20,000 nucleotides of DNA, from contig MEDY01000128.1 in assembly GCA_001724265.1 (NCBI GenBank), positions 48,860 through 68,859 of the forward strand, given 5' to 3'. The first letter of the stretch is position 1. The number at the start of each line of letters is the position of its first letter. Both the position numbers and the translations under genes were made by a program. The stretch is from Rhizaria sp. SCN 62-66 (Eukaryota). The notes beneath the pieces are model-generated. The model was not told the DNA's origin. It searched no databases and was given only the letters and a program-made list of their open reading frames with translations. Of this stretch, positions 905-20,000 are shown piece after piece.

Positions 905-2842
905 TCATGTCATGACAGCGTTGTTGTTGCCGCTCCCCGCGTCACTCATCGGGACACCCCCGCTCGCGCCCGCATCCGCCCCCGCGCCGGCAGCAGCAGC
1001 GGCGGCGGCACCGGCGGCGGCGCCGGCCTGGTTGACGCACACGTTGTAATGCGCGGCTGCTGGCCTGCCGCAGCAGCCGCAGCAGCCGCAGCGGGGCGCG
1101 CCCGCCTCGGCGACCATGGGAGGCACACGCACGGTGTCGACGTGGCGCACGCCGCCGCGCACGTTGCGCCGGAAGCGGTCGCGCCCGGTCGCGCTGGACT
1201 GGAAGTGCGCGGCCAGCGCCGCCGCGAGCGCCAGACGCCGCCCGGGCCCCGCGGCGGGCGTCTCCAGCAGCAGGCGCAGCAGCGCGAGCGCAGTGGCCAG
1301 CGGCATGCCCGCGACGTTGACCAGATACGTCTTGAGCGACTTAACGGCGTACGAGGAGCGCACGACGACGGCGTTGCCGAAGTCGGAGCGCAGCAGCGTG
1401 GGCGCCGCGCTCTGCCCGTCGAGCAGCGGCAGGCTCGCAGCCGTCGCGAGGGCACGAGGCCCGCTGCCCGCAACGCCTGAGGCCGCGGTGCCGACTGTGG
1501 TCGAGGCGCCGGTGCGCGCGGCCATGGCCAGCTCGGCCTCGCTGACGGGCGGGAAGTCGATGCTCGCGCCCAGCTCGAGCGCGTCCTTGCGGTGCTCGTA
1601 ATAGTACTTGATGTCGCCAAGCATCTGGGCCGAGACGGCCGCGCGCTGCTGCGGCGTCTCACGGTCCTCCGGCTTGGTTTTGAGCTGCTGGTAGCGCCAC
1701 ACGGGGTCGTGCTCGCGGTCATCGAGGCACAAGTCCCGCAGCGCGCCCATGCGCTCCGCGGCCGCCTCGTCGTCCTCGACCTCGGTGTCCGAGTCGCAGC
1801 AGCCCACGTCGGGCCCGTACATGGGCGGGATCAGCGGGATCGCGGGCGTCAGCGGCGCGTCGAAAGGCAGCAGCCGCGCGCGGTCGCCTGCCGCGAGCTT
1901 AGGGATGATGCACGGCCCGAAGACCTGCGGCCCCGCCAGCGCGTCGAGCTCGTTCGTCTCGCACATGTTGCCCCACTTGGAGCGCAGGTCCATCACCGAG
2001 AACCCACCCAGCCAGGGCGCGAACCGCGCGTCGCGCTTGACGCGGCTGAAAAGCGTGTTGCCGCATTGCGCCACGGTCAGCGCGGCCGTCAGCCCGCGGT
2101 CCGCCATGTCCGTCCCGATCACCGTCACGGCGTCCGTCAGCACGGCCTCATGGTGCGGCGTCCAGTCGCTGCCCTTGAGCGCGGCCGCGCGCTTCCCGCG
2201 CAGCGACGTGAGGAACTTGCCGTGCGCCGTCTCGTCCGCGGTGAGCCGCACAGAGGACGAGCCGAGGCGGCTGTCGCCGATGACGGCCCCCGCAAGCACC
2301 GGGGCCGCCGTCGACAGGCCGCCTACAAGGGGCGCAGCGGCGGCCGCCCCAGCAGGGGTCGCGGGCGCAGCGGCCGCGGGGGCGGCGGTGGGAGCGCTGG
2401 GGGCGGCGGCGGCAGCGGCGGGACTAGAGCTGGAGTTGAGGAGGCGGGCGAGTGCCTCCGCCTCCTGCTCGGCCTCGGCACTAGACGCGGCAGCAGCTGT
2501 GGGCTCGGGCTTCGCGGCGGCGGACTCGAGCTTGACCAGGGCAGCGTCGGCCGTCGCGGTGACCGCGTCCGCGTCGTCGGTCATTGCTGCAGCAGCGGCG
2601 CTATCATTCGCAGCAGCGGAGCCGGGCGCCTAAAACTTGACAGTGACGTCGCCGTCGGCGGCGGCAGCGGGCTGAGAGGCAAGGGCGGCCTTGCGGAGGG
2701 CAAGGCGCTCCTTGAGGGAGAGCATAGCCGACGGCGCGGCAGCAGTCGCCGCGTCGGCAGTGGCAGCGGAGGTGTTGGTGTCGTCGTCGTTCATGGTGTT
2801 GTCGGCAACGGGGGAATCCGCCTTCTCGGTAGGGGGCTGCAT
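905..2842 (-). CDS. Ala-rich protein with a Myb/SANT (telobox-like) domain and C-terminal Cys/His cluster; contains an in-frame TAG at 2632-2630
   Basis: ORFs 2630..3013 and 905..2584 share a frame and are joined by TAG plus 15 sense codons (TVKF*APGSAAANDSAAAAAM). GC-rich coding style runs to ~2840. Start is ATG 2842 or ATG 2794 (aacaccATG context). Stop is TGA at 907-905. Confidence 0.75.
1964..2164 (-). other. Myb/SANT-like domain resembling the telobox class (TRF/TRB-type)
   Basis: WTPHHEAVLTDAV...RDARFAPWLGGFSVMDLRSKWGNM resembles the telobox pattern WTxEE..L..GV...D..F...L..RS.VDLKDKWRNM; divergent. Confidence 0.55.
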
Positions 2843-3448
2843 GCGAGGAGAAAAGCACCAAGAAAAAAGTGCGATGCAAGACGATGTGTTGTTGTGTTGT
2901 GGGTTGGCTCTGAGAGAGACAATTAGAGAGGTACGCGAACGGAGAGAAATTGATAGGAAAAGTGGTGAGTCTAGGGATGTCTGGGTAGAGCCACACAGAT
3001 GAGTTGAACACATGTTGTTTCAGGCACACGCGAAAAATTAGATGGAAAACCAGGAAAAACATAAATTTGTAAGATCAACGACGGAATCAGGCCACACGTG
3101 ATGGATGTAATCGAGAAGTCGAAGGCTGGGCGCGAAGACGAACTCGATCGCGAGCGACCGGAGATTTTTTGCGAACTCGACTGACCAACGTCTCACGACT
3201 GGGAGTTGATCTTTGAGCCGATCTACCTCTGCATTATATCTGTAAACTAGAATTAAACCTCCGCAGTCTAGCACTTAATTGCGGTTTTGTATAGTTATAT
3301 TTAATTGTTTTTTCAAAATCTGCCGTCTTACCTGCCCCCGCTCCCCTCGAATCTTTCCATTCGACTCCCCAACTTGAAATGCCTCGTGCCACCTCCACGC
3401 CGCTCCTTCGTCCCCCGTTCCTTCCACAACGCAGCCCCGCCTGCCACC
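2843..3448. promoter_or_regulatory. Divergent (head-to-head) intergenic region, probable bidirectional promoter and 5' UTRs
   Basis: Lies between the minus-strand gene start (~2842) and the plus-strand ATG at 3449. AT-rich core at ~3230-3320, with pyrimidine-rich leaders on each sense strand. Confidence 0.5.
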
Positions 3449-6049
3449 ATGCGTCTCACTGACGTCATTGGCTGCTCCCCGCCGACCCGCGAGGGCTTAG
3501 CTTATTATACCCCGCCCACAGCCACCACTTCCTCGTCCTCGTCTTCAGAGGCATCTTCAAACTACTCAAGCAACTCCCCGAGTGCCAGCTTCCCCTCACC
3601 CGCAGCCTCGAGCGCCGGCCCCCACGGCTCCTACGCCGCTGAGCTTGCCGCGTTTGCCGCCGCCCCGCTGCACTCGTTCCCGTGCAGCGCGCCCCGCCAC
3701 GCCGGCGCGACCACGGTCACGCTGCCGGCCCTGCTGTGCAGGCCGCTCGTGGCCGTGCCCGCGGGTGCCTCCGTGCTGTTGCTGTGCGCGACCACGCTCG
3801 ACACGCTCGCCGTGCTGCCGGGCCGCAGCGGGCACCAGATTGTCTCGCTCGCCTTCTCGCCCCTTACGCCGCTCCCCCCGCCTCAAACTATGGCCGACAC
3901 TGCTGCGGCTGCAACGGCGACAAAGCCTGAGGCAGCGGATAACGCTGCTCCCCAGCAGCAGACGCACGACGTGCTGCTGTATGCGGGCGAGTCTGGCGTT
4001 GACGCCGGCGTTCTCGTCTTCAGCCTGTCCCTGCTGGGCCCCGCCGTGGCGCTCTACGCGATGCGCCCTCCCTCGCCACAGTCCTTCGTCGCGGCGGCGG
4101 CGGCCGCGGCGGCCAGAGTCGCGCTCTCCCAGCGCGCCAGCTCCAGCAACAGCAGCACTACGACCGCCTCTGCAACTCCTGCGGGAGCGACCCTGGCCGG
4201 CGCAGTCGCCGCCGCCGTGACCGCCGTGGCACACCTAGTGGGCGACGCCGAGGCCGAGTCCGCGGCCGAGTCCGTGGCCGTGGCGGTGCTGCAGCCCGCG
4301 ACCGTGGGCACCGTCGCGCCCTCGCCCTGCGGCCGCTGGTTGCTTGCCGCCAGCAACACCGGCACGGCGCTGTGGGCCCTCGCCACCCCCACCACCACAA
4401 GCACCGCTAACGCGGGCCTGAGCACTGTGATGGAGAGCTCGAGCTCGGGCGCAAGTGTGAGCGCGAATGACGTCGATGCCGGTGCAGTTGCTGTTGCTGG
4501 GGATATGGTGACTGTGAGCAGCGCTGTTGCGTCGATGATTCACTACAATAACAACATCGCCCTCTCGCAGCCACATCATCAGCAGAGGATCAACTCAGAA
4601 CATTGCGAGAGTGAGCGAGCGTGCAAGCGCGAGCGCAAGCGGCGGCAGCGGCAGCGCCGGCGGCAGCAGCGGCAGCGGCTGCGGCAGCTTGTCTGGGACT
4701 GGGCCTCGGCCTCAGTCCTTACTCTGACCCGCCACCCCACGCTGCCGGACGCCGACACCACGCTCGCGCTCGCCGCGGCGGCCGCGCCGGCGGCTGCGGA
4801 GGCTGTCGCGGCATATCTTTCGAGCCCTGGTGATTACGCCGTGAGAAGTGTCAATACCGGTGCGAACACTGACGCCGACGGCAGTGCGCCGTGTTTGCTG
4901 CTAGCCTCGGCGGCGGCGGGGGTCGTGGCCGTGGCGGCCCGCCCGCCGCCGCCGCTGGCGCTGGCATGGTCTCAGTGCGGCAGCTATTACGCTCACAGCC
5001 ACTTGACTGGCGGGGCGAGCGTGGTATCGGTTGCCGAGGTCTCGCCGCGGGCGCTGCTGCTGGCATCCGCTGTACACGGTGACACTGAGGGCAAGAGCAC
5101 AGCAGCTTGTCAGAGCGACGATGATGTGTTAGTGGCGGTTCCCGTTGCTGTCGAGCTACTTACAAGTCTAAGTACCCTCTGGCAGAAGGCGAACCCATAC
5201 GCCCCTGGCTGCTCACAGTCACCCTTAGAGCTTCAGAAGACCCTTACAGAGGCGATCACGCGTGCCGCCGCACTTACATCTGCTGACAACGACAATAAGA
5301 ACAGGAGCAAGAGTAAGGGTGCTAAACGCCAAGATGGTGACGACGATGAGAATGAGAGCGGCACTGTGCTGTCCGCGTCGCTGCTGCTGACTCTGTCTCA
5401 CCCGAACCCCGCAAACCCGATGCCTCTCCTGCATCCTGGCACGAACAGGGCCAAAGCTCAGAGCGACAGTGGCAGTGCTAGAGCCAGTGCGAGTGCGTGT
5501 GCGAGGACGTATGACGAGGTGTCGTTGTCGCTACTGCTGTCTCTCTTGCCAGCCCTACTTCTGCCCCTGACTACTTCATACAGCAATGACCGCAATATCA
5601 GTGGTTGCGGCAGTGGTGGGCTGGCTGTGACCGTGAGCACCCCAGTCAGGCTTGGCTTGCACAAGAACATCTTGATCCCCTCTATCGCTTGGTTGCCGAC
5701 TGCAAACGCACACTCTCCCAGCAACACGGCCACTGACGTGAACAATACCAATGCGAGTGCGTGTGCGAGTGGTAAAGAGCTATGGGCGGGCCCCGAGTGC
5801 TACTTTCTCACCGCCACGGGCGTCATTCTGCTGCTGCGGCCGAAGCTTTTCCCCCCGCTGCACACCATCATCGCCGCAAGCTCGAGCCCAAGCAGCATCA
5901 CGCGCTCAGCCACCGCCCCAGCCACGGCGACCGACGCTGACACGGCGAGGGCGGCTGCGGCAGCGTTCGCCCGCGTGTTTGCAGCAGACCAGGCTGACGT
6001 GCTGTTGCCAACCATGGCGACAGGCTTTGCCGCTGCGTTCAATTCGACG
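3449..6049 (+). CDS. MAPKBP1: WDR62/MAPKBP1-like WD40 protein, exon 1
   Basis: ATG 3449 in gccaccATG Kozak context. MRLTDVIG..., LVAVPAGASVLLL, IVSLAFSP and LLYAGESG..GVLVFSL match the WDR62/MAPKBP1 N-terminus as recalled (LEKVLG / VAYPAGCVVVL / ITALAFSPDG / LVTGESGH..AVRVWDV). Ends at a phase-0 donor ACG|GTACGT. Confidence 0.8.
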
Positions 6050-6199
6050 GTACGTCATTGTAGTCATTCTCTCAGAAATACTAGGATTATTTGACTATAA
6101 TTCATTGAAACGTGCGTTTTATAATTTTGTTTGCATTATTGTTTCATCTTACTCACATCATACCTTGTATCTCCATTGCATTTTAAATCATATGCGTAG
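6050..6199 (+). other. Spliceosomal intron 1 (150 nt, phase 0)
   Basis: GTACGT...GCGTAG and AT-rich; removal joins the 3305..6094 frame to the 6308..7957 frame exactly. Confidence 0.9.
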
Positions 6200-7949
6200 A
6201 TTCTTCCCACTCTCGGTCTGCCTGCAATCACAGCCTCCACTGCTGCCGGCCTCAACTCCACCACAAACGGGCTTGCGTCAGCGACTACCACCAGCGGCAG
6301 CGTCACTTTGCGGCTGACTTGGGAGGTCGAGAAGTGGGTCAGTGCCAAGATCGACCACGGTCTCTACTTACACGCCTCGCAGCTCCCTTACACCTCATAC
6401 CCGCCCCCCTTAGTGCAGTCCCCAGCCCCCGCCGGCGGCCCGCCCCAGTCAAACGCGAGCGCGAGTGCAGGCACGGGGCCCGCGAGTGCGAGCCCTGCTG
6501 GCGCGGCGACCCCTCTGTGTCTACTCACGGTCACGGGCCGCGGCGGCCGCGTGCGCCTCTTCCATACACACACGCTGCGCCACGTCACGGCCATCACCGC
6601 GCTCCCGCCCACGGGCGCCGCCGCGGGCACCGCCGCCGCGGCCGCGGACCTGGCCGGCGCGGCGGCCGCGATCGGCGCCATCGCCACGCGCACCGCGGGC
6701 GCCGACGTGCGCTACTACGACGCCGTCGACAACACGGACCCGAGGTTCCGCCGGCTGCTGCGCAAGCACGCGCAGGAGCAGCAGGAGCTCCTGAACGGCG
6801 CGAGCGGCGGCGGCGGCGCTGCTGCTGGCGACGGTGCGGACTCGCGCGGCGCCATTGGGGGCGTGGCCCCCGTCCGCGGCGGGATCGACTACCGCAGCAG
6901 CGGCCGCTATGTGCGCCGCATGGAGCGCTACGAGGCCAAGATGCGCGCCGCCGGGTTCCCGCACGGCCCGCCGACCCGGGCCAGCTTCGTCACGCTCACG
7001 GTCCCTGCGCCAAAGCTGCCCGTGTGCGTCACACTGCGCCTGTCGGCGGACGGCAGGAGCCTGGCGATGCACTTCGCGGACCGGTCGCTGCTCACGGTTG
7101 CTTTGACGTTTCCGGACGCGGCCTACGCAAACGGCGCGAGTTCCAGCGCGACCGCAAGCGCGAATGCGAGCGGCGCGAGTCTGGGTCACCTGAGTAGTCG
7201 CGTCGGCAGCGGCAGCACGCCACGGGACGCCAAGGGCGCGGCCACCGCCAAGCCCTTTGTCCCCAGCGTCGCCTTCACCGGGTACCGGCCTGCGGTGCGC
7301 GGATCCGTGTCGGCGCTCAGGGTATCGACCGTGTACCCGCACAACCCGGCCGCGGAGTCGATGGCGGGGTTCAACTACACCGCACGGCTGCAGCAGCGCG
7401 CGGCCGCGGCGGACCACCCGCGAGCCCACGCGTACGCGGCCGAGCTGGCGGCCAAGCTCGCCGCGCAGGGCGAGCCGCTGGCGGCGCAGTGCGCGCGCGA
7501 GCAGCGCGGCACGCTGGCGGTGACCGTGGTCGGTACCGAGGGTGTGGTGCGCGTGTTCGCGCTCAGGCCCAGTGGGGCGGGGCACGCCAGCGACTGTGAG
7601 CGCAACTACTTCCCGCGCAGTAAGGAGGAGCGGGACAGCGGGACGTACGACCCGTTTCCGCTCACTAACAAGAGCAAAGCTCGCACTGGCGGTGCTGGCG
7701 GCGCGAAGCCTGAGAGCGACTGTGAGCGCAAGGTGAGCGACTGTGAGCAACTCTCACCATCACTGTTGCAGTCGCAGTCTGAGGCGCGGTTCCGCCGCAG
7801 TGTTGCGCTGGGGGACCGTGAGCAGGCCGAGCTGCGGGACCAGCAGTGGCAGCAGGTCTCGTGGGGGCCCATTGACCCGGTGCCTGTGGACCGCGTGCAC
7901 GCGCTCTTCGCGGTCCGCACCGGCATGCTCAACCAGTACTCGACGCCAG
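6200..7949 (+). CDS. MAPKBP1: WDR62/MAPKBP1-like WD40 protein, exon 2
   Basis: Open from 6200 (ILPTLG...). Motifs VEKWV, GRVRLFHTHTLRHV and LRLSADGRSLAMHFADRSLL parallel family motifs (LDKWV, GTVRLFNPSNLHFL, LTFDP...LSCVYNDHSI). Confidence 0.82.
7589..7748 (+). repeat. Dispersed direct repeat AGCGACTGTGAGC x3 (SDCE peptide)
   Basis: Copies at 7589, 7715 and 7736; the first two share 17 bp. Confidence 0.85.
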
Positions 7950-8101
7950 GTACTTAGACGCGAACACCATTTTCACACTGACACTTCTCATTCTCGATGG
8001 CTTTTTGATTTATGATGATATTTTTGTTCTGGATTATCAATGTCTTTATCTAACATTATCCCTGTGTTTTTGTTCTTTTATTTGATTTGTTATCGTTTTA
8101 G
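7950..8101 (+). other. Spliceosomal intron 2 (152 nt, phase 1)
   Basis: CAG|GTACTT...TTTTAG|G, with CTAAC branch candidate at 8050-8054 and a T-rich tract. Splicing restores the frame into ORF 8257..14454. Confidence 0.92.
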
Positions 8102-11100
8102 GTCCCGCTGCCGTCAAGGGCACTCAGGTTATCACGGCTGCCTCTGCCTCTGCATACGCCGCTGCCACGACCGATGGCAGCAAAGCAGGTGTTTCTAGTT
8201 TTCCCGTCCACGGCGCTCAACATTCAGCCGTTGCCGCTATCGACGGAAGCACTAATGTGCAGCAACTGCAGTCTGCGCCGAAGACGACGTGTCTCGTCGG
8301 CGCTGCGACGCCCGCAGTCTCGTTCTGGCAAAACAGCACTAACGCCGACGACAACGACAGTATTAGCGACATCAGTGACACCGATAGCGGCACCGATTAT
8401 GACGACGAAGACGAAGCTGACAACGCTGGCGGCGTCAGTCTTAAGCGCGAGCGCAAGTTGCTGCAGCAGCAACACAACGACAGGCAAGAGGGCAAGAGCA
8501 ACAGCAATATGAGCTTTAACTGGGACGACGAAGCGACGTACACTGACAATAACGATGAGTCAAAGAGCAACATCTCTCACAAGAATCTCACCAACAGCGC
8601 CAGCAACGCTAGTTTTGTTGGCAATGTTTTGAACTCGATGACCGCGAGCCTCGTCATGCGCGGCGTTGTCACCGGCGGCGCCCGCAGTGCCGTTGACTCC
8701 TCTACCGTGACTGCAGCGAAGCCGGCCGCTGATCACAGCGACATTGTGACGGCGATCGCCGACGGCGACATCGCCAGCGTCCACGGCGGCGTGGCGGCCG
8801 ACGCGGCGTACAACAGCTGGGACGCGCTGCAGCAAGAGGGCGCGCTGGCATGGGCGCTGTGGGGGACCGACGTCGACGCCGTGAGCACCATCACCACGAC
8901 GGTCACCACGCGCACCAACTGCACCGCCATCTCGACGTCGTCGTCCTCACACGCCACCAGCAGCAACAACACCGGTGACAGCACCCAGAAGAGCGACTCT
9001 AGCGGTGGCGGCGCGAGCGGTGCGGGCAGCCAGGTGACCGTGAGCACGCCGACGGCGACGACGACCGTGAGCGAGCGCGACGGGCTCCACGTGCGCACCA
9101 AGGTCGTCACAGGCAACGCCGCGATCGAGAACGACTGGACCACCGCGAACCTGCCCCCCATCACGGACGCGGCCGCTCCGACTCCCAACCCGGCGAGTCA
9201 CACTGGTGCCGGCCGTGGCGGTGCTGCTGCGGCGGCCACGCCCCAGCCTGGGTTTGCGCTGCCGCCGACAGCGCTCACCGCATTAGTGCCTCCCAAAGCT
9301 AAGTCGCAAAGCACCTGCAAGAACAGCAGCGCGAGTGCGAATGCGAAGGGCAGTGATGGCGTCGGCGGGTACGGTGCGGCCGCGCACTGCGTCGCCATGA
9401 TCCAGGCCCTCAGCGACGGCGGGGTCGCGGACCCTTACTCGGCGCCCACTTACTCCGGCACGGCGCCGCACGCGAAGGGCCGCGGCGCGCGCGCGCTGGC
9501 TCCGTTAACCACGCTGCCTGCGGGCGCGAGCGTGCCGCTCGACGGCTCCCGCCATAACAGCATCGCGTTTGCCCACGGCAGCGACTCTAACGCCGGCACC
9601 AGCGACACCGCGTCTGGGTTCAACAGCGGCGCGCAGAGCGTGGGCGTGACCGTGGGCAGCACGCTGGCCGGCGTCGCGGTGGGCGACACCAAGGGCGACG
9701 TGCTGGTCATGGCGGCCGTTGCGCAGAGCCTGTTGCCGGCGGCCGTGTCGGCGCCCGCGGCCGAGCACGCGGTGACCACGACCGCTGGCGCCAGGGCCGC
9801 GGCCGAGGCCGAGGCGCGCACCGCGATTGCCGTCGCTCTCGCGTATGCCCGCGACTTACTCAACAAGAACAAGAACACCAGTGCAGGCAGTACCCGTGAC
9901 ACTCACAGTCTCAACATGGCCGTGCTGGAGCTGCTCGAGCGCGAACCGATGCTGCTGACGACCGGAGTAACTGTGAGCGCCAGCGCCCGCACCGGTGTGC
10001 TCACGGTCACCTCGCCCCACTCCGGCGGCTCCACTATGACTGTGAGCCACCTGTTCTCCGGGGTAACCGTGAGCACCGCGCACGGTGCCACCAAGGCGGC
10101 CCCCATCTGCCCGTACTACAGCTATTATCGGCCGACGCTGGCTCCGACGGCGCCCGCCGCGGTACGGTTGGCGTGCCACGCGCTCGCGCACACGCTTCTG
10201 TTCCCGGTCAAGACGCTGGGCGCGCACGAGGGCGCGGTGACCGCGCTGTCGTTCTTGCCGCCGCCCCCGGCCCCGCTGCCCACGGTCACAACCACAACGA
10301 CGACGACGACTACAACGACGACGACTACAACGACGACGACGACGACGACGACGTCTGGGACGCCAGCCGGCAACCACAGCGTTAGCGGCGTCAGCGGCGT
10401 CAACGAGGGCGGGCTCGTGCCACTGCCTTTCAGCCTCGGCCGCCGCCCCTGCCCCGGGCACTTGCTGACAGCCTCGCAGGACTCGCTGGTGCACGTCATC
10501 GACACGGGCGACCTGTACGGCCCTCCGCTGACCACGCTGCAGCCCGTCGGGCCCCTCGCCACCGTCACCGCGCTGGCCCCGCTCCTACCGCCCTCGAGCG
10601 CGCCGGCCGCGCTACTCAACGCCGGCCCCCGCGTCGTGGCCACGGGGCTGGACGGCAGCGTCACTCTGTGCCACCTGCCGCCCTTCACTGCGCTGCCGCC
10701 GCCCAACAGCGGAATGGCCTACGGTGGCGCGCCCTCTGGGGCGTTCTGCCCCCCGTTCCCGCCCGCCCTGTCGCTCCACACCGCCTCCGCCTCTGCTTCT
10801 GGCACTGGCTCTGGCGCCGGCGCCGGCGCGGGTCCGGGTGTTAGTGACCGCGTGTTCGCAGTGGCGGCACATCCTCTGGGCCGACTCGCGGTCACCGCGG
10901 GCGGCGTCGCGGCGGCCGACACGTGGCAGCTGCCCACGGCCACGGCCTCGGCCGCCGCGGCGAGCACCGGCATGCCCGCCGCGGTGGTCGGCGGCAAACC
11001 CGGCCCGCGCCTGTGGCTGCCGCTGGTCTCGGTCGTTGCCCGGCACGTCCGACGCGAGAACAGGCGCGAGGCGGCTAAGGGGCTGGCGAATAAGGGGTGC

Positions 11101-12692
11101 TTAGAGACGTCGAAGGGCGGGGTTAGGAAGAGCGTTACCAGTGGCCCCGGGACTGCTGCTGGTGACGCTGAGGTCATCACTCTTGACAGCACCGATGACA
11201 GCGACTCTGGCGCTGAGTTCGAGTCTGACGATGACTCTGCTTCCGACACTGATCGTGACAGTGACGACGACGACGGCGACGATGACGACGACGACGACGA
11301 TGACGACGATGATGAGGTCGAGTGGCGCCACGACTACCACACTGCCATTATCGCGCTCAAGCTTGCGCGGGACAACGACCAGCACAATCATCAAGTCAAG
11401 CTCGACAAACTCAACAAAACTAAGGCGAGCGCGACTGAGAAGACGGCCAAGAAGACTCGCATCGGTGACGACGATTACGACGAGTTTGCGTTCGACACAA
11501 GCACTCCGAGAGTCAACGACGCCGTTGCTGAGGCCGATACGGGCGGCAGCTTGACCGTGGTCGAGAGCGAGGCCACCAAGGCCGCCGTCGCCGCGCTGGC
11601 CGCGGTGGTGGCGCAGCGGCCAGCCCGCGCCCGCCCGCAGCCGCTGCTCTGCACGCACGCGCCGTCGCCGCTACACCGTTCGCGGCCGCCGCCCAACCTC
11701 GCCTCGCTCTCACTCCTCGCCAGCGGCGCGGCAGCAGGTGGCGGCGCGGTGACGGCCGCGGCCCGCGCCGCCGCCGCTGTGGCCGTGCCGTGCTGCGCGC
11801 TCACGGTAGCGCTCGACCCGTCGGGCTCGTGCCTGGCCGCGGCGCTCAGCGACGGCCGCGTCCGCCTGCTCGACACGACGACGGGCGCGACGCTCAGCGA
11901 GGCGCCCGCCGTGCACGGGTCACACGTGTCCGCGCTCGAGTTTGCGCCCGACTGCGCCGCGCTGCTCGCGGCGGGCGCGGACGGCGTCGTGGCGCAGTGG
12001 GCCCTCCCGCGCTGGCTGCGGCTGCGGCTGCGCGCCCGGCTCGGCCCGCTGCTGCGCGACGTGCGCGCGCAGGACGGCGCCGCGCTCGTCGCGCGCGTCG
12101 CGGCCGCCGCCGGGGTCTCCACGGCCGCGCTCACGCCTGCGCCGCACGCGAACACCAGCGCTCTCACCAGCCAGTCGGGCAGTAAGTGCGCTAGCGCGAA
12201 GAACGACGAGGATGATAACGACGATTTGATCACTGTTACGCCCGCGATGGCTCGCGCTCTCTGTCTTCCTGCTCACAGCAGCAGCGGGAGCAATGCGACG
12301 ATCACCGCGACCGCGCTGCGGTCTCGCCTGCGCTCTCTGAGCGTAGCCGCGACCGACGCCGACCTGATAGCGCTGCTGCTGCGGCCGGCCAAGGCGCCGC
12401 CGATGCTGTTGGTGCCGCCGCCGCGTGAGCAGCGACTGCCGGCGATGTCGCGGTACTACAAGCAGTGCCTCGACGAGCTGATGCAGATGCAGCGGCAGCA
12501 CCAGCAGCACATGCTTGAGCTAGAGCGGGAGCAGGAGCAGGAGCAGCAGGGGCTAGAGCTGGAGCACAAACAGTCGCAGCTGGTGCTCGAGCCCGAGACT
12601 GAGCCGGACGCTGACGCTGACGCTGACGCTGAGGCAGGTGATGACGCCGAGGCTGAAGCTGCTGACGCTGTTGAAATCGACGTCGATATTGG

Positions 12693-12724
<32 letters not shown>

Positions 12725-15700
12725 AAGCGAGCGACGACAGTCTCGACGGTGCTGACGGCGAAGACAACGATAACGAAGACAAGACCAACACTGGTACCAA
12801 CGGCGTCGCAGTCGACGATGATGATGTCGATATCGACATCTCTTTGTCTGACACTGGCAACGCCAGCAAGGACAGTGTCGCCGTCGATAACAGCAAGGCA
12901 ACTGGCTTCGTTCTTCGTCTCGCTGGTGTCAGCGCTCATGACCAGAGTGTAAGTACTCCGAGCAGGAATCTAAGTACCCCCGGCTCTGCCGTGAGCGGCC
13001 GCAAACCCTCCAGGTGGGCTGCCAACGCGGCGGGACAAGGCGGCGTCCCACTGTTTATTCCGCGCATCAACAACGCCGCTCTGTCCAGCACTTTCACGAA
13101 CAACGACACTGACAACGACAACGATGACAACGGGGTTAGTGGCAGCACGAGCCTGAAGTCTGACGTTGTCGTTAACGCGAAGAAGGCTGACGATAAGAGT
13201 GCGGTTTACAGCGTGAAGTCTGGTAAGACTGCACTGACTGCTGATGCTGATGCGAAGGACGACGCTGTTGTCAGCGGTGACAACGATCTTGGCTACGGAG
13301 ACCCGACGCAGCAGTACAACAACAAGTACACCAACAAGTTTGCGAACATCAAGCTGCACAATAACACCAGCAGCAAGAATAGCACGATCGATAAACACGC
13401 CGACGCCGACGCCGCCGATGACGACGATGATGGCGCGAGCTCGAGCACGAGCGCGTCCTTCCACCTCCGCATCGCTGACGCTGACGACGACGACGATGAC
13501 GGCGACTACGACAACGACGGCGACGATGACGCCCGCGGTCACTTGCGCAGCGGCGGCGTGGCGCGGGTTGGCACGGGCAGGCGCAGAGTCACCAGCGCGT
13601 CGCGACTGCAACGGGCCCCCGTCACCACCACGGCGTCCGCCGCGACCGCAGCCGCAGCCAGTGCGAGTGCGCTGAACAGCAACGCCAGTAGCGTGGACTC
13701 CAGTGGCGCCAGTGCCCGCGTCGTCAACAGCGCCGGCTCTGCTTCGACGACGAGCTCTCGCGACGCCTCCGCCGACGGCGGTGTCAAGCAGAGCGGCCTG
13801 ACTGCGCGGCGGCAGAAGCCCGTGTTGTTCCGCATGGAGTCGCCACTGGCCTCGGCCGCGACGCTGCGCCGCGCGGACCTGGGGCTGCAGCAGGCGCTGG
13901 CCGAGTACAACACCGCCATCACGACCGGCGCTGCGGCGGGCGGGAAATCGGGCCATATCCCCGCCGCGCCTACCGCTGCTGTCGGCGCCGCCCAGCCCGA
14001 CCCTCAGACTCAGCCCGCGCTTGGTAGCGCCGCTGCCGCTAACGCCGCTACCGCTAACGCCGCCGCTGCCGTGAGCGCCTTCGGCAGCGTCGTCAGCGTG
14101 GGCGGCGCCGCCGTGGTGCTGGCGCGGCAGCCGTCTCGTCGCAGCGCGCTGCGCCGCATTGGCTCCAGCCGCGCCGCCACGGGGCCGGTCGTCGCGACTG
14201 CGGCCGATAGCACGGCTGCGACTCAAGCGTTGGCCGCTGCGGCCACCGCGACTGAGGCGCCCAGTAGGACTGAGCCAGCGGCTGCGGCTGCGGCCGCGGC
14301 TGAGGCGGCTCCTGTGGCTCCTGTGGCTGCGGCTGCAGGCATGCCTGGGCTCAAGCGGCAGCCGTCGTTGCGCTCGTCATTCAGTGCTAGTTTCTACAAC
14401 AATCATAACGGCAGTAGTGCACTGAGCAGTTTCAACGCAAACGGAAGCAGCTAGAGCAGCTTTAACACACATAACAACAGCAGCAACACTGCTAGCGATA
14501 CTACGGATTCTTCTGCTACTACGACGGACTCCGCCACTGCAGCCGATGTCGCTGCTGTTGACGATGCTGCTGCGGGTGCTACCCCCGCTGTCGCGCTTGA
14601 TAGCGCTGGCACTGAGTCGAACACTGAGACAAAGGATGCTGATACTGCTGCTGCGACCACAGCGGCTGCGGACGAGATCGAGACGGAGACGAAGACTGAT
14701 GCCCAGACCACTCCCGCGCCCGCGACGGTGACTGCCCCCACGCGCACTGTGCTCAACAGCGCGATCGGTGGCGACAGCAGTGACAGCGACAGCGAACCCA
14801 CCGGCGTCGACCTCAGCAGTCTCATGGCTGCTCGCAACACGGGAGAGAGGAGCGATGCTGAGGCCGGCAGCAGCGACAGCGTTGGCGCCACAGATAAACC
14901 CGAGCCGACGACTGTTGTCATTGACGAAATCAACGACTACAAGAACGCCAACAACGTTCCCACCGGCGACGACATGGACGTCGAGGACGACTACAGCGAG
15001 TTCGAAGAGGAGGCCCTCGAGGGTCCTACGCCGGCCATCACTCCCTCGGCCTCCAACGCCAGCGGTCACCCTCATGGTGCGGTGACACCGCGGAAGCAGC
15101 AGAAACACGCTGCGACGCCCACCGCCGCGCACGGCCGCGGGAGCAGCAGCGCGGCGCACCTCAGAGGCGGCGGCGGCAGCGACAAGTTGGGTGTGCCGCC
15201 GGCGCAGAGTCCTGCCCACGGGCACTCTGCCCAGCACTCTGCTCACGGTCAGTTGAGCCCTGGCAGAGCTGCTAGACGCCAACTTGTCTTTGCTGCGACA
15301 GCGACAGCATCACCGCCTCGAAGCAACACCAGTGACGACGTGAACGACAGTGCGAAGGATAGCAACGCCGTCGCTATGACCGGCTCAAGCACTGCATCTG
15401 CGGCTGCGAGTTTGACTGGGAAGGAGAGTGCCGTGCGCCGCAGCGTTGTCACGCCGCTGCAAGGCACGCGCACTGTCGTTGTCGACTCGATGTTTCCCCC
15501 GCTGGCGCAGTCGCAGTCGCTCTCACAGTCGTTTACGCAATCGCAGCTTTCGCAGTCTCAGTCGTCGATGTCGCAGTCCCAGTCCCAGCTGCAGTCTTTG
15601 TTACAACAACAGCAAGAACAGCAGCTGCTGCTGCTCCAGTCACAACTGTCGCCCGCCGTCACTAGTGCGACCAGCGATGTAACGACTGCCGCTGCTCCTG

Positions 15701-17316
15701 CTGCCGAAAGTGCTGTTAACACTGCTGTTGGTGTTGGGGCTGGAGCTGCAGCGGGCTTGAACACCAACGCTGCTGCCAGCGGCGCCGTTGTGGTTCCTCG
15801 CTTGCCTCTCTCGCCCATCAAGCTCCAGCAACAGCAACTGCAGCAACAGCTGTTACAGCCAGCGCAGTTGCCCCGCAACAGGCCACTTTCTTCACAGCCG
15901 CAGTTCCAGCAACAGCAGCCACAACATCAGACCCAGACCGGCTTCGTGGTGACTGCAAGCCCCAGCTCCCGCCCCCGCAACTCCCCCGCTCACGGCCACT
16001 TCCTCCCAGCCCACGGTCAGTCCCCCGCCCACGGTCAGTCCCCCGCCCACGGTCAGTCCCCCGCCCACGGTCACTTCGCTCGCGGCCTCAGCGCCGTCAG
16101 CAGCCCGAGCTTCGGACGCCAGCCGACTCTGCGCCACTCGGCCAGCCTGAGCAGCACCGGCGCGAGCGGCGGGGGCGTGCCGGTGACCGCGCACGAGGCC
16201 GCGCTGACCGCGCTACAGGCCTCGCTTAAGGCCGCGCTAGACCTGCTCGCCGTCGCCGAGGCCGAGGCTGAGGCTGAGGCCGAGGCCGAGGCTGAGCAGC
16301 AGGAGCAGCAGCCGGACCCGGATGGCTTGGACGCGAACGACAGCTTTGCCAACGACGCCAGCGCGAGCCACGACGGGGGCGACGTGTTTGACCTCCGCAC
16401 CCGCGACGTGGGCCTCACAGGTCGCCCTCTCAGCACCCGGCACAGCGGCGGGCCCGCGGTGCAGCGGTCCGCAAGCGTCTCCGGGCTGGGCAGCCCCTCG
16501 GACGGGCCGACCGCCCCCGCGCTCAGCGCGCGCGAGCGGCTCGCGGCCGTCACGTCGCTCTACCAGGACACGTTCGCGCTGGTCCAGCAAGCGGTCACGG
16601 TCGCGACGGACAAGACGGAGCGCATCATGGTGCTGACCGCGCGCGGCAGCGGCAGCGGCAGCGACAGCAGCCGTGGCAACGGCAAGCGGTTCACCTACTC
16701 GAGTACGAGCAACACGAGCGCGCGCATCACTGGTGGCTTTGATGGCACGACTGCAACCGGCGGTGGCGCCGCTGTCGGTGGTGTTGCACCTCGTCCTGTG
16801 ATTGTGAACGCGAGTCCTCGCATCAGTCCAACAGGCGGCTTACCTTCGTCAGCAGGAGACCCGCATTCTGGTGTTGAGGCGAGTCCCCGCGTGCAATATC
16901 AGGGGCTGAGCGAGATGTTACGCCGCAGCAACAGTGTCACAAATACCAACAACAGTAAGCTACACGAGCTGAACATCAGCGAGTCTGGTGATTTTGCTGT
17001 CAATAATCCTGATGCTGCACCGAATCACACCACTAGTGCACGCTATACCGCTTTTAACGCTGCCGGTAGCGGTGACTTTGCGGGCGAGTTCGGCGCGGTT
17101 TATACTGGCGATTCAGGTGCGCAGAATGTGGACATCGATCCGATGGACGCATTGACAAGCCGCATTGCAGACATGGTGGCGGCCAAGCTTCAAGCACGAC
17201 AACTAAATGGCAGCAATATTACTACTCCGCTGTCAAGCACCCGAAACAGCGCGGGGCCTAACAACAGTGCGTTGATTGGTCACTCGAATCAGACCCCAAA
17301 TCAAAATCAAGGTTAA
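8102..17316 (+). CDS. MAPKBP1: WDR62/MAPKBP1-like WD40 protein, exon 3 (9.2 kb; in-frame TAG at 14452-14454)
   Basis: Contains VAVGDTKGDVLV, AHEGAVTALSF, LLTASQDSLVHVID and ALDPSGSCLAAALSDGRVRLLD...VSALEFAPDCAALLAAGADGVVAQWALP (family: SGDRMG, AHDSEILCL, LASASRDRLIHVLD, DPSGIYIATSCSDK...[20 protein letters not shown]), plus PSRWA. The frame continues 91 sense codons past the TAG into ORF 14728..17316 and ends TAA where AT-rich DNA begins. Spliced CDS is 13,566 nt (~4,521 aa). Confidence 0.8.
10288..10353 (+). repeat. Coding trinucleotide repeat (ACN)22, poly-Thr
   Basis: Mostly ACG with ACT/ACA interruptions; lies between two WD40 motifs. Confidence 0.95.
11263..11313 (+). repeat. Coding (GAY)n poly-Asp tract
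   Basis: GAC/GAT run with a single GGC interruption. Confidence 0.9.
12694..12723 (+). repeat. Perfect (GCT)10 poly-Ala microsatellite
   Basis: Directly visible. Confidence 0.95.
15982..16077 (+). repeat. 18-bp coding minisatellite (PAHGQS)n
   Basis: CCCGCCCACGGTCAGTCC-type units x3 flanked by PAHGHF variants; degenerate copies also at ~15205-15260. Confidence 0.92.
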
Positions 17317-18525
17317 GTGGCTGTTTGCAAAGGGTGATTATGATGCGGTTTATTAACATTGATTAAATATAATCCTACGTCAGAGAAGGTCTACTTGTTA
17401 CGTTAGAAATTTGAATAGTGTTTTAGAATATTTACTCTGGGAGCATCTGTAATACATATGAGCTTACATGTTTTCCTTCGTGAAGATGACAGAGTGATGA
17501 GTGATGTCTAATGATGTGGATATTACTCAGTATCATCTTCATATAATTTTTATTTCATCGTGTCACACGATGATACAATTAGCTTACGATGATACATGTA
17601 GCTCAAATCAACGTTCATCGTGTCAAAGTAGGTTCAAAATAGCATCGATATTGCGACTGTCTGGGCTGTATAATTGCGAGCGAATGCGACTTTTCCCCGT
17701 CGCACTCACTCAGCTTGAATTAACGGTCCCAGGCAGGCAGGTGATGATGCAAAGCGCTCAATTGGTATCTTAATTAGGTGACATGATCGTCTACATTCAT
17801 TTCTGTCACCACGAACACTCTTTGCTGTGCTGGCGATCTACATTTGACAAGAGTGTTGAAACCGCACAAAACCCTAATTACATATTTGTAAAAAGCTATG
17901 GGCAACCAGTCAAACCCGTTAACATTCCATTAGGGGGCGTTATGTAGAAGGTCGGGGCGTTGTGTATAAAATACATAATTATACATAATTGATACAAGAT
18001 AATGGCCATCTACATGATGAAACAGCTATAAAATTGCAATTTTACGATTGAATCCGCTTGTTCATCTGCATACATGAAAACGGACATTTCCGTTATCGTG
18101 CGGTTGTCTTGTGGGGCCTTTTCCTGTTGCTGCCCGGTGTGTCATAATAATTTTCGATATCTTCACTATACATCATACTTAATCCATAAACACTATCACC
18201 ACACAAAATCGCCGTCGTGTTTGTGCGCAAATGGTTAGCAATCTCACATTGTAGTTGCGCACTCTTGACACCCCCGTCCCTTCTGTTGGGGTTCTCAAAA
18301 TATCACAAGTGACTGGTGGTGATGTCATTTCGGAAGCGTCATCGATGAGTGCATGTAGTGGACTATGGCAACGCTAGATTGACAAATGTGACGACTGACA
18401 TCGTAGACTTATTAGTTTCATACGTATTTATTCAACGTAATATCCCACAGCTGCGCTAATTCCTTCCTGCTTCCCTTCTAATTCTCAAGATTTCCAGAAG
18501 GTTCCTTGGCACCGCTCTTGCCACA

Positions 18526-18943
18526 ATGAACCCCTCAACGTCGCTCTCCGCTGAGCTGCAGTCGTCTGATAGCGAACGACTAGGCCTTGCCGCAGACATG
18601 CCCCGCGCATCTTCGCTTGCAAGTCCCAGCTGCTCCGCCGTCCCTCGCCCCCATTTTGGCTCGGTCGACGCCCTTCGCACCGACCGTGACCGTCGGGCGT
18701 CCGCTGTTGCCGTCGACGTCTCTCCGAGTCCTTATCTCCTCGCCTCTAAGCCCCTTCCTATAGCAGACCTCCTTGCCGCCTCGGAGGTCTTTCCCGCACT
18801 GGCTCGCATTGCTGCGGATGATGAGTTGTCGCCCGACGCTCATTCTATCGGCCAGGAAACCTATTCAGATTCGGACAGCTGGGCCTCCGCGACTGGTGGG
18901 GGGAGGGGCATTGCCGCGATACAGCAGCCTGCTAGCACGAGTC
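18526..18943 (+). CDS. Hypothetical coiled-coil protein, exon 1 (Ser/Ala-rich)
   Basis: gccacaATG start, GC rise relative to the spacer, ends at a phase-1 donor C|GTACGT. Confidence 0.7.
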
Positions 18944-19116
18944 GTACGTTATTGTTCGCATTTACATGTTGACTTGCGATGACCGAATCGTCAAATAAAT
19001 AATCAAAGTGACCTGCTATTTTATAACATTTTTTTCTTCAAAGTTACCGTTCTAACTTAGTACTTGTACCTCACCATGTTTGATCTCGCTTGATTTTCTC
19101 CTTCTCTCTTTCATAG
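18944..19116 (+). other. Spliceosomal intron (173 nt, phase 1)
   Basis: GTACGT donor, CTAAC at 19052-19056 and a strong pyrimidine tract TTTTCTCCTTCTCTCTTTCATAG; the phase matches the long downstream frame. Confidence 0.85.
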
Positions 19117-20000
19117 AAATCAACAGAGATCGCGCGTAGCATCAAGAACGTATTGCGACTATTCAGAAGAAAATAGCCAGGGCGAGGTTGCACGTCGCAC
19201 ATCATGAAAGGTAGCTCGAAGTGGCTGATTGCAATCTTCTCTCGACCATTACGACGCTAACACCCCTGGACACGGAAGTTGAACGCGGCCGCGTTGCTGC
19301 TAAGAAGGCGGATGCTGAGCGAGAACTGGCATCCGCTCAAGCTAAGCTTGACAAGGCTAGGGCTGCGTTGGCGAAGGACAGGGCTGATTTGGCAATGGAA
19401 GAAGCTGAACATAAGATGGATGTCGCTAAAGCTCGAGTTGAGGCAAGCAAAGCAAAGCTCGACAAGACATCTAAGTCTGACATTGCGTATGCCGCAGCCA
19501 AAGCCCGGCACAAGACTGACGAAGTCGAGCTCGAAGTGGCCGAGAAGAAGCACTCACTAGCGCAGGCCAAGCACAATGAGGCGGATGCCAGGCTCAAAGT
19601 GGCTGATGCTGAACTCGGCGTTTCTCAAGCTAAATTAACATCTTCGAGCACCCTTGACGGGTCAGCACAAAAAGTTATCGGCGCGGCCGAGAGCAAATTG
19701 TTGGGTGCCAATGAGATGCTTATGTTGGCTAGAAGCGAACAAGGAAAGGCGGCCGGAAATCTAAATGCGGCTGAGACAAAGCTGCATGATGCGAAGGTGC
19801 AACTGAAGAAAACTAATAATGACACATCGCAAACACTTCTGACTCAAGCTCAAGCTAACCTTGCGGCGTTTGTCAAGGGTCAACCACAGATGTCGTGGAA
19901 CCAAGATACGTCCAAAGACTTTATCATTCTGGAGGCACCCTCGATCTTAGACAGTGGTGGCCACGTGGCGCGCTTTCCGTTCAGTGGCAAAGGTCTTGAT
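19117..20000 (+). CDS. Hypothetical coiled-coil protein, exon 2 (3'-truncated; in-frame TAGs at 19137 and 19212); absent from the ORF track
   Basis: My translation: QINRDRA*HQERIATIQKKIARARLHVAHHER*LEVADCNLL...ERELASAQAKLDKARAALAKDRADLAMEEAEHKMDVAKARVEASKAKL...RFPFSGKGLD. Ala/Lys/Glu heptad pattern; no TAA/TGA in frame to the window end. Confidence 0.78.

Follow-up and report, generated by a model that had tools for sequence, protein, structure and literature searches.

Nuclear genetic codes in which UAG alone has changed meaning are known from very few lineages. Two of them are described in PMC5304391: Rhizaria sp. exLh, in which UAG specifies leucine, and Iotanema spirale, in which it specifies glutamine. 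By the codon usage given there, I. spirale has few in-frame UAG codons, and those of exLh are rarest in highly expressed genes. A different fate of premature UAG codons is found in fungi, where restorative A-to-I editing corrects them in the RNA; PMC10776026 describes the repair of premature stops in 71 Fusarium pseudogenes.

The 20,000-nt stretch of DNA analysed here, which we call the window, resembles exLh and I. spirale, as characterised in PMC5304391, in that UAG is the only stop found in frame. UAA and UGA serve as terminators in those two organisms, and the few terminators visible here, three in all, are TAA or TGA. The resemblance is limited in several ways. The passages on exLh in PMC5304391 count 384 in-frame UAG codons in 71 genes, whereas the window has 4 in about 5,750 codons. 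The argument made there for exLh and I. spirale is based on hyperconserved alignment columns, a matching tRNA gene and an analysis of eRF1, whereas the case made here draws on gene sequences, codon usage and paralogues. Finally, unlike in those two organisms, the genome here is 65–73% GC and no one amino acid is found at TAG. We propose, with a probability of about one half, that TAG is translated in this organism as a rare sense codon or a suppressed codon. The wider proposal, that the organism represents a new lineage with a UAG-only nuclear code change, rare, perhaps ambiguous and possibly at an early, low-usage stage, is one that we hold with the same even confidence.

The window is a eukaryotic contig with exons of 65–73% GC and AT-rich introns and spacers. 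Its DNA is found in metagenomes from bioreactors, wastewater and activated sludge, 9 of the 11 listed runs, from 6 studies, carrying part of it; the source is an uncultured, GC-rich, intron-poor wastewater eukaryote. The sole conserved gene in the window is the end of the gene for eIF3 subunit D (eIF3d), whose C-terminal 150 codons lie at positions 1–453 of the forward strand (Pfam E-value 1.5e-36). It terminates with TAA, and there is no in-frame TAG over the 150 codons. A tRNA search found no tRNA genes in the window, and an Rfam search of the window gave no matches.

At the other end of the window, on the forward strand, lies a gene belonging to a repeated family. Exon 1 extends from an ATG at 18526 to 18943, that is, 139 codons plus one base, and encodes a predicted disordered N-terminus that is shared with three paralogues. 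It is followed by a 173-nt intron in the style of the host introns (18944–19116, GTACGT...TTCATAG, 35% GC), with a CTAAC about 70 nt before the acceptor. Exon 2 (19117–20000) continues past the window end and encodes a coiled coil and then a P-loop NTPase, as seen in the ORFs of L001 and P0011. The sequence-only reading had placed a phase-1 donor and a pyrimidine-tract acceptor at this intron, and both are borne out: the GT of GTACGT is at 18944–18945, which leaves a single base of a split codon at the end of exon 1 (18943), and the 20 nt preceding the AG at 19115–19116 are 95% pyrimidine. This AG is also the first usable one downstream of the CTAAC near 19043. Among the 22 GT sites of exon 1 only one, the GTACGT at 18944, is host-like, and the same hexamer opens the window intron at 6050–6199. 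The window's three introns measure 150–173 nt and are 31–35% GC. The codon score of exon 1 is +0.24 in frame versus −0.22 and −0.48 out of frame. Its ATG is common to three paralogous ORFs (54–67% identity), with the frame kept through several in-frame indels, and one exon 1 paralogue retains the same read-through tail past the donor.

The predicted junction of 18943 to 19117 is thus supported by sequence comparisons, and we accept it. The polyA metatranscriptome X5 is the sole RNA run with part of the window. None of its 8 listed pieces lies on 18944–19214 or on any TAG, no joint from 18943 is among the 15 listed out of 55, and the bin 19025–19225 has a depth of 2.38 that is tied to no listed piece. 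It had been argued that neither TAG of exon 2 would serve as an acceptor, and we agree: a phase-0 donor would be needed, none that is host-like is present, and the sequence upstream of the TAGs is 40–45% pyrimidine. A second intron starting from the GT at 19136 was also considered and rejected, since its donor would be of phase 2, and every acceptor of that phase beyond 19214 would remove conserved coiled coil.

In the accepted frame, exon 2 contains TAG at 19137–19139 and again at 19212–19214, both on the forward strand and in one frame (codon starts at positions divisible by 3). Translation gives INRDRA-stop-HQERIATIQKKIARARLHVAHHER-stop-LEVAD, as had been claimed, and the run of about 260 stop-free codons said to follow counts 262 to the window end. 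The spliced model reads QQPASTSQINRDRA-stop-HQE at the first TAG, and its residues 147 and 172 are its only stops. The hydrophobic heptad positions listed in the sequence-only reading are present across the TAGs with spacings of 7 and 3–4, and both TAGs fall at surface positions, c for the first and g for the second. DNA contigs from runs X1, X3 and X4, of three studies, cover 19048–19469, 19048–19470 and 19048–19375 with no differing letters; the TAGs are therefore real and are not sequencing errors. The 32-codon stretch containing both TAGs has 2 stops versus 1.7 expected in random sequence of the same composition, so by itself it does not look open, and its coding status derives from the paralogues and not from the window's own sequence. 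Scored by codon usage, it reaches −0.21 bits per codon under the host table and +0.15 under that of the family. About 99% of the 31-codon windows elsewhere in the ORF score higher, although among the three frames its own remains the best. The score, together with two TAGs 25 codons apart, looks like local decay.

Three paralogues, compared at these sites as proteins only, are open across the stretch. In the protein alignment, P0002 and P0024 both have Trp at the first TAG and His at the second, and P0025 (52% identity) has Arg and Lys. Relative to P0025, the heptad core is identical at 6 of 9 positions, and other positions at 9 of 26. Since the core is better kept than the surface, the coiled coil appears to be under protein-level selection, and the core conservation and the three open paralogues together argue that the stretch was ancestrally coding. 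An internal 16-nt repeat has Glu and Arg codons at the spot matching the second TAG. The comparison of paralogues that the sequence-only reading had called for thus yields an open coiled coil at the TAG sites but no common amino acid. In the P0003 and P0004 lineages, ORF calls share a GTG start located two codons beyond the site of the second TAG, which fits a putative shared stop there, judging from the ORF starts.

Beyond the second TAG the gene is open for a long distance. L001 represents the same locus: it matches the window without a difference for 2,159 bases, continues for 1,069 bases past the window end, and has no stop in the 618 codons that follow the second TAG. P0011, the same locus in another assembly, is a 767-aa ORF from the GTG two codons past the second TAG. 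A search for further pseudogene lesions, of the kind that would have spoken against the sequence-only reading, found none in exon 1, in the intron signals or in the 767 codons after the second TAG. Two side observations concern the distal part of the gene. The ORF calls of P0001, P0011 and P0012 end at ...LLLQITAS, about 130 residues before the ends of P0009 and P0005, and this end could be a stop, an intron or a true end. In addition, L001 differs over 2160–3228 from P0001, the window's own protein (97% identity), and matches P0012 near its 3' end; either the assembly is chimeric here or conversion between gene copies has taken place.

The predicted protein has three parts: three long N-terminal helices, a P-loop NTPase and a poorly modelled C-terminus. 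The structure model has a pTM of 0.61, with pLDDT below 50 for the C-terminal 130 residues. The Walker A sequence GPPGTGKS and the sequence VYLFDPDE are almost invariant in 11 sequences. The best PDB matches, RuvB, CED-4, Cdc6, NLRC4 and RFC, are weak (E-values of 1e-3 to 1e-2), and the modelled NTPase fold is at most weakly AAA+/STAND-like. None of Crinkler (PF20147), RHSP (PF07999) and RHS_N of Pfam was matched at E-values up to 0.1 or 1, and no family reached its cut-off with the L001 ORF, P0011, P0005, P0009, P0010, P0007 or exon 1 as queries. The nearest Atlas clusters are labelled Crinkler or RHS, or are unnamed fungal clusters, with feature scores of 0.95–0.96 and structure TM of 0.45–0.51; this nearness is a lead, not membership. 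We regard the gene as a member of a multi-copy family that encodes a P-loop NTPase, N-terminally coiled-coil and remotely Crinkler/RHS-like. Like the Crinkler/RHS-type (CR) proteins, as far as these are described in PMC5289972, the family is multi-copy in a microbial eukaryote and has a P-loop NTPase core; unlike the CR proteins of that description, it is without a ubiquitin-like header, its N-terminus being a disordered exon and three long helices. The C-terminal restriction-endonuclease-like domain of CR proteins would fall in the part of low pLDDT.

The family is repeated, with summed contig depth rising 6- to 50-fold over parts of 17819–18823 and 19427–19627, and its GC3 is 0.54 versus 0.77 in host genes, a difference for which neither RIP nor CpG depletion left a signature. 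The family gene (window 18526–20000 and L001) could be of foreign or mobile origin. Upstream of it, at 17819–18421, lies a high-copy non-coding element with a summed depth in X1 of 200–1,955 versus about 35 in the adjacent sequence. A short core unit within it is suggested by loose ends at 18140 and 18266, and the element could be mobile or could represent a homogenised promoter. A metagenome scan for DNA of the paralogues found L001 only, and viral scans found none. The sole match to the family in a genome scan, L002, was rejected as a spurious coiled-coil match, and with the N-terminal 110 residues as query none of 864 candidates reached an E-value of 0.01.

Taken by itself, this gene upholds the gene model of the sequence-only reading, through the splice sites and the paralogues, and neither demonstrates nor excludes the translated TAGs that the reading implied. 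What strengthens the translated-TAG reading are in-frame TAGs in two neighbouring host genes, which that reading had not mentioned.

The first of these is a giant host gene of 4,522 codons on the forward strand (3449–17316), ending in TAA. Its exons are 3449–6049, 6200–7949 and 8102–17316, separated by introns at 6050–6199 (GTACGT...GCGTAG) and 7950–8101 (GTACTT...TTTTAG), and the joined CDS of 13,566 nt is in frame. Poly-Q, SPAHGQ and EA repeats make the protein mostly low-complexity, and a single WD40 match was obtained. The gene joins three long ORFs and is broken up by prokaryote-type standard gene calls, and all 8 of the ORF pieces used for exact look-ups were absent from the collection. 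The sole internal stop is a TAG at 14452–14454, residue 3568, seen with 0 differences in contigs of three runs. The in-frame codon score is +0.47 before this TAG and +0.82 after it, where 953 open codons follow. The 123 codons from the TAG to the next ATG score +0.82 in frame versus −0.72 and −0.79 off frame; with this score ahead of the next ATG, and with no AT-rich spacer, the possibility of two genes abutting at 14452 was rejected. The TAG lies within a motif NGSS-x-SSFN: at 14410–14466 the motif NGSS(AL)SSFN is found twice, with codons that differ at almost every position, and the first copy has Ala-Leu where the TAG stands. Past the TAA of the giant gene, in an AT-rich stretch, a polyA-RNA contig matches 17435–17678 with 0 differences, and this segment is probably the 3' UTR of the gene.

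The second, host gene 2, has 646 codons on the reverse strand (905–2842), is Ala/Thr/Asp-rich and ends in TGA; its ATG is at 2842, where GC rises from about 0.45 to 0.70. The TAG is codon 71 (2630–2632, reverse strand). In-frame codon scores are +0.91 upstream of it and +0.52 to +0.61 downstream, with 574 open codons following. The ORF calls on both sides of this TAG have exact matches in 6 contigs of several origins, and their clusters include no longer allele. Around the two host TAGs the off-frame scores lie between −0.27 and −1.15; for comparison, the score is +0.15 for a UTR-like stretch and −0.06 for intergenic DNA. There are no frameshifts in the 4,522 + 646 host codons. Introns over the host TAGs were considered and rejected for want of a host-like donor (best 4 of 6 at 14452 and 5 of 6 at 2632–2630). 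There are 196 in-frame GT..AG pairs over the TAG at 14452 and 96 over that at 2632–2630, and the best six pairs for each TAG are 52–70% GC versus 31–35% in the real introns.

In all, three of the four genes in the window have in-frame stops, 4 TAG, 0 TAA and 0 TGA in about 5,750 codons. The terminators seen, three only, are TAA, TGA and TAA, and the only other TAG bounding a long ORF, at 7955, is within an intron. That the in-frame stops in three of four genes are all TAG argues for a translated TAG, as do the strong in-frame codon usage on both sides of both host TAGs, the fixation of the host TAGs across studies together with the lack of frameshifts, and the intact exon 1 and 767 open codons that flank the TAGs of the family gene. 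The putative shared stop of the P0003 and P0004 lineages and the precedent of UAG-only reassignment in PMC5304391 point the same way. TAG is present in the DNA, the best splice sites put it in frame, paralogues are coding over the stretch, and two unrelated neighbouring genes show the same anomaly; translation is what we infer. TAG would then be no reliable stop: it would be a sense codon in rare use, or one that is suppressed efficiently, with termination at TAA and TGA. The family gene would be intact, with exon 1 (18526–18943) spliced to 19117, and the ribosome would pass both TAGs on the surface of the N-terminal coiled coil and continue into the NTPase.

The frequency of TAG bears on what kind of change this might be. 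In 5,316 codons of host genes, 2 TAGs are seen versus 41.7 expected, which makes TAG about 20 times rarer than composition predicts. This rarity makes an old, efficient reassignment unlikely and fits a rare or ambiguous codon. No one amino acid aligns with TAG: Trp, Trp and Arg or His, His and Lys are found in the paralogues, and Glu and Arg or Ala-Leu in the internal repeats. Because the sites are variable surface or low-complexity positions, they provide a weak test for a single amino acid. Other points also count against translation of TAG. The family stretch looks decayed, and the window contains no tRNA gene. All the TAG-bearing genes are low-complexity or multi-copy, and the 150 codons of eIF3d are without TAG. 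Finally, TAG is the commonest product of random nonsense mutation, accounting for 67% of such changes in host genes and 50% in those of the family.

This last point favours the strongest alternative, that the organism uses the standard code. The family copy would then carry two nonsense codons, as a young pseudogene or a shortened gene, and the host TAGs would be unrelated recent lesions in a clonal lineage. The product would either be a peptide that stops after about 146 residues or lack its N-terminal part, with translation starting from, for example, the ATG at 19396. Crinkler and RHS families include many pseudogenes. The present family resembles such pseudogene-rich effector/RHS families in having many copies, some truncated or frame-shifted, and a conserved repeated upstream element. 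Several copies are visibly damaged: the tail of P0004 leaves the family frame, the ORF of P0009 starts mid-domain on 4 contigs, and the C-terminal tail of P0002 is the reverse complement of the upstream repeat element. The earlier ends of P0001, P0011 and P0012 relative to P0009 and P0005, the ordinary and differing residues of the paralogues at both TAG sites, and the random stop density and unusually low codon score of the TAG stretch would also be expected of lesions. Unlike in those families, however, only two TAGs are found as lesions in the readable part of this copy, and single-copy neighbours are affected as well. The family gene shows no damage in exon 1, at either splice site or over at least 767 codons downstream. 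Each host TAG is embedded in a region of strong coding signal, followed by 953 open codons in the giant gene and 574 in host gene 2, and nonsense codons would be needed in three of four genes within 20 kb with no frameshift anywhere. No signature of RIP or CpG decay is seen that could account for a burst of mutation: in the family ORF, TpA/ApT is 0.61–0.69, (CpA+TpG)/(ApC+GpT) is 1.28–1.57 and the observed/expected CpG ratio is 0.93, so that RIP or methylation decay was rejected. The standard code would call for nonsense codons in three neighbouring genes out of four, two of the three being single-copy, each followed by a long intact frame, all fixed in samples from several studies and none accompanied by a frameshift. 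We judge this unlikely, while considering the standard code the most serious competitor of a translated TAG.

Much less probable is that the TAGs of the family gene are absent from the mature mRNA, exon 1 being joined to a distal AG at 19221 or 19278. Both AGs suit the phase-1 donor and keep the frame, a CTAAC at 19257–19261 is about 18 nt upstream of the AG at 19278, and stops seem to recur in the TAG stretch of several paralogues, judging from the ORF starts. However, the sequence upstream of 19221 and 19278 is 40–50% pyrimidine versus 95% at 19116, which is also the nearest usable AG downstream of the CTAAC near 19043, and the TAG stretch is read as protein in three paralogues. A distal acceptor would also leave the TAGs at 14452 and 2632–2630 unexplained, since no host-like intron fits there. 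That premature UAG is corrected in the RNA, in the manner of the restorative editing of sexual-stage fungi, is more doubtful still: the genes are otherwise intact and broken by UAG, like the fungal targets in the account of PMC10776026, and two of three paralogues have Trp at the first TAG site, but, unlike in the fungal case as presented there, Trp in paralogues is confined to one TAG site, the remaining sites having His/Lys or no Trp, the density (three of four genes) is far above that case, and none of the X5 RNA contigs listed is over a TAG. Other explanations are given an equally slight chance.

If the alternative of lesions is right, the window holds one damaged copy of a repeated family and two unexplained nonsense codons, and is of little interest. 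Standard-code gene calling cuts the organism's genes at every TAG, as in the existing ORF calls. The assemblies already include contigs of 54–203 kb from the organism, so that a reassignment is testable on public data; those of 203, 170, 91, 81, 68 and 54 kb carry P0001, P0021, P0012, P0011, P0008 and P0010, respectively. If TAG is translated, a GC-rich lineage with in-frame UAG 20 times rarer than its composition would give is a candidate for the ambiguous intermediate of codon reassignment, a state that is seldom observed.
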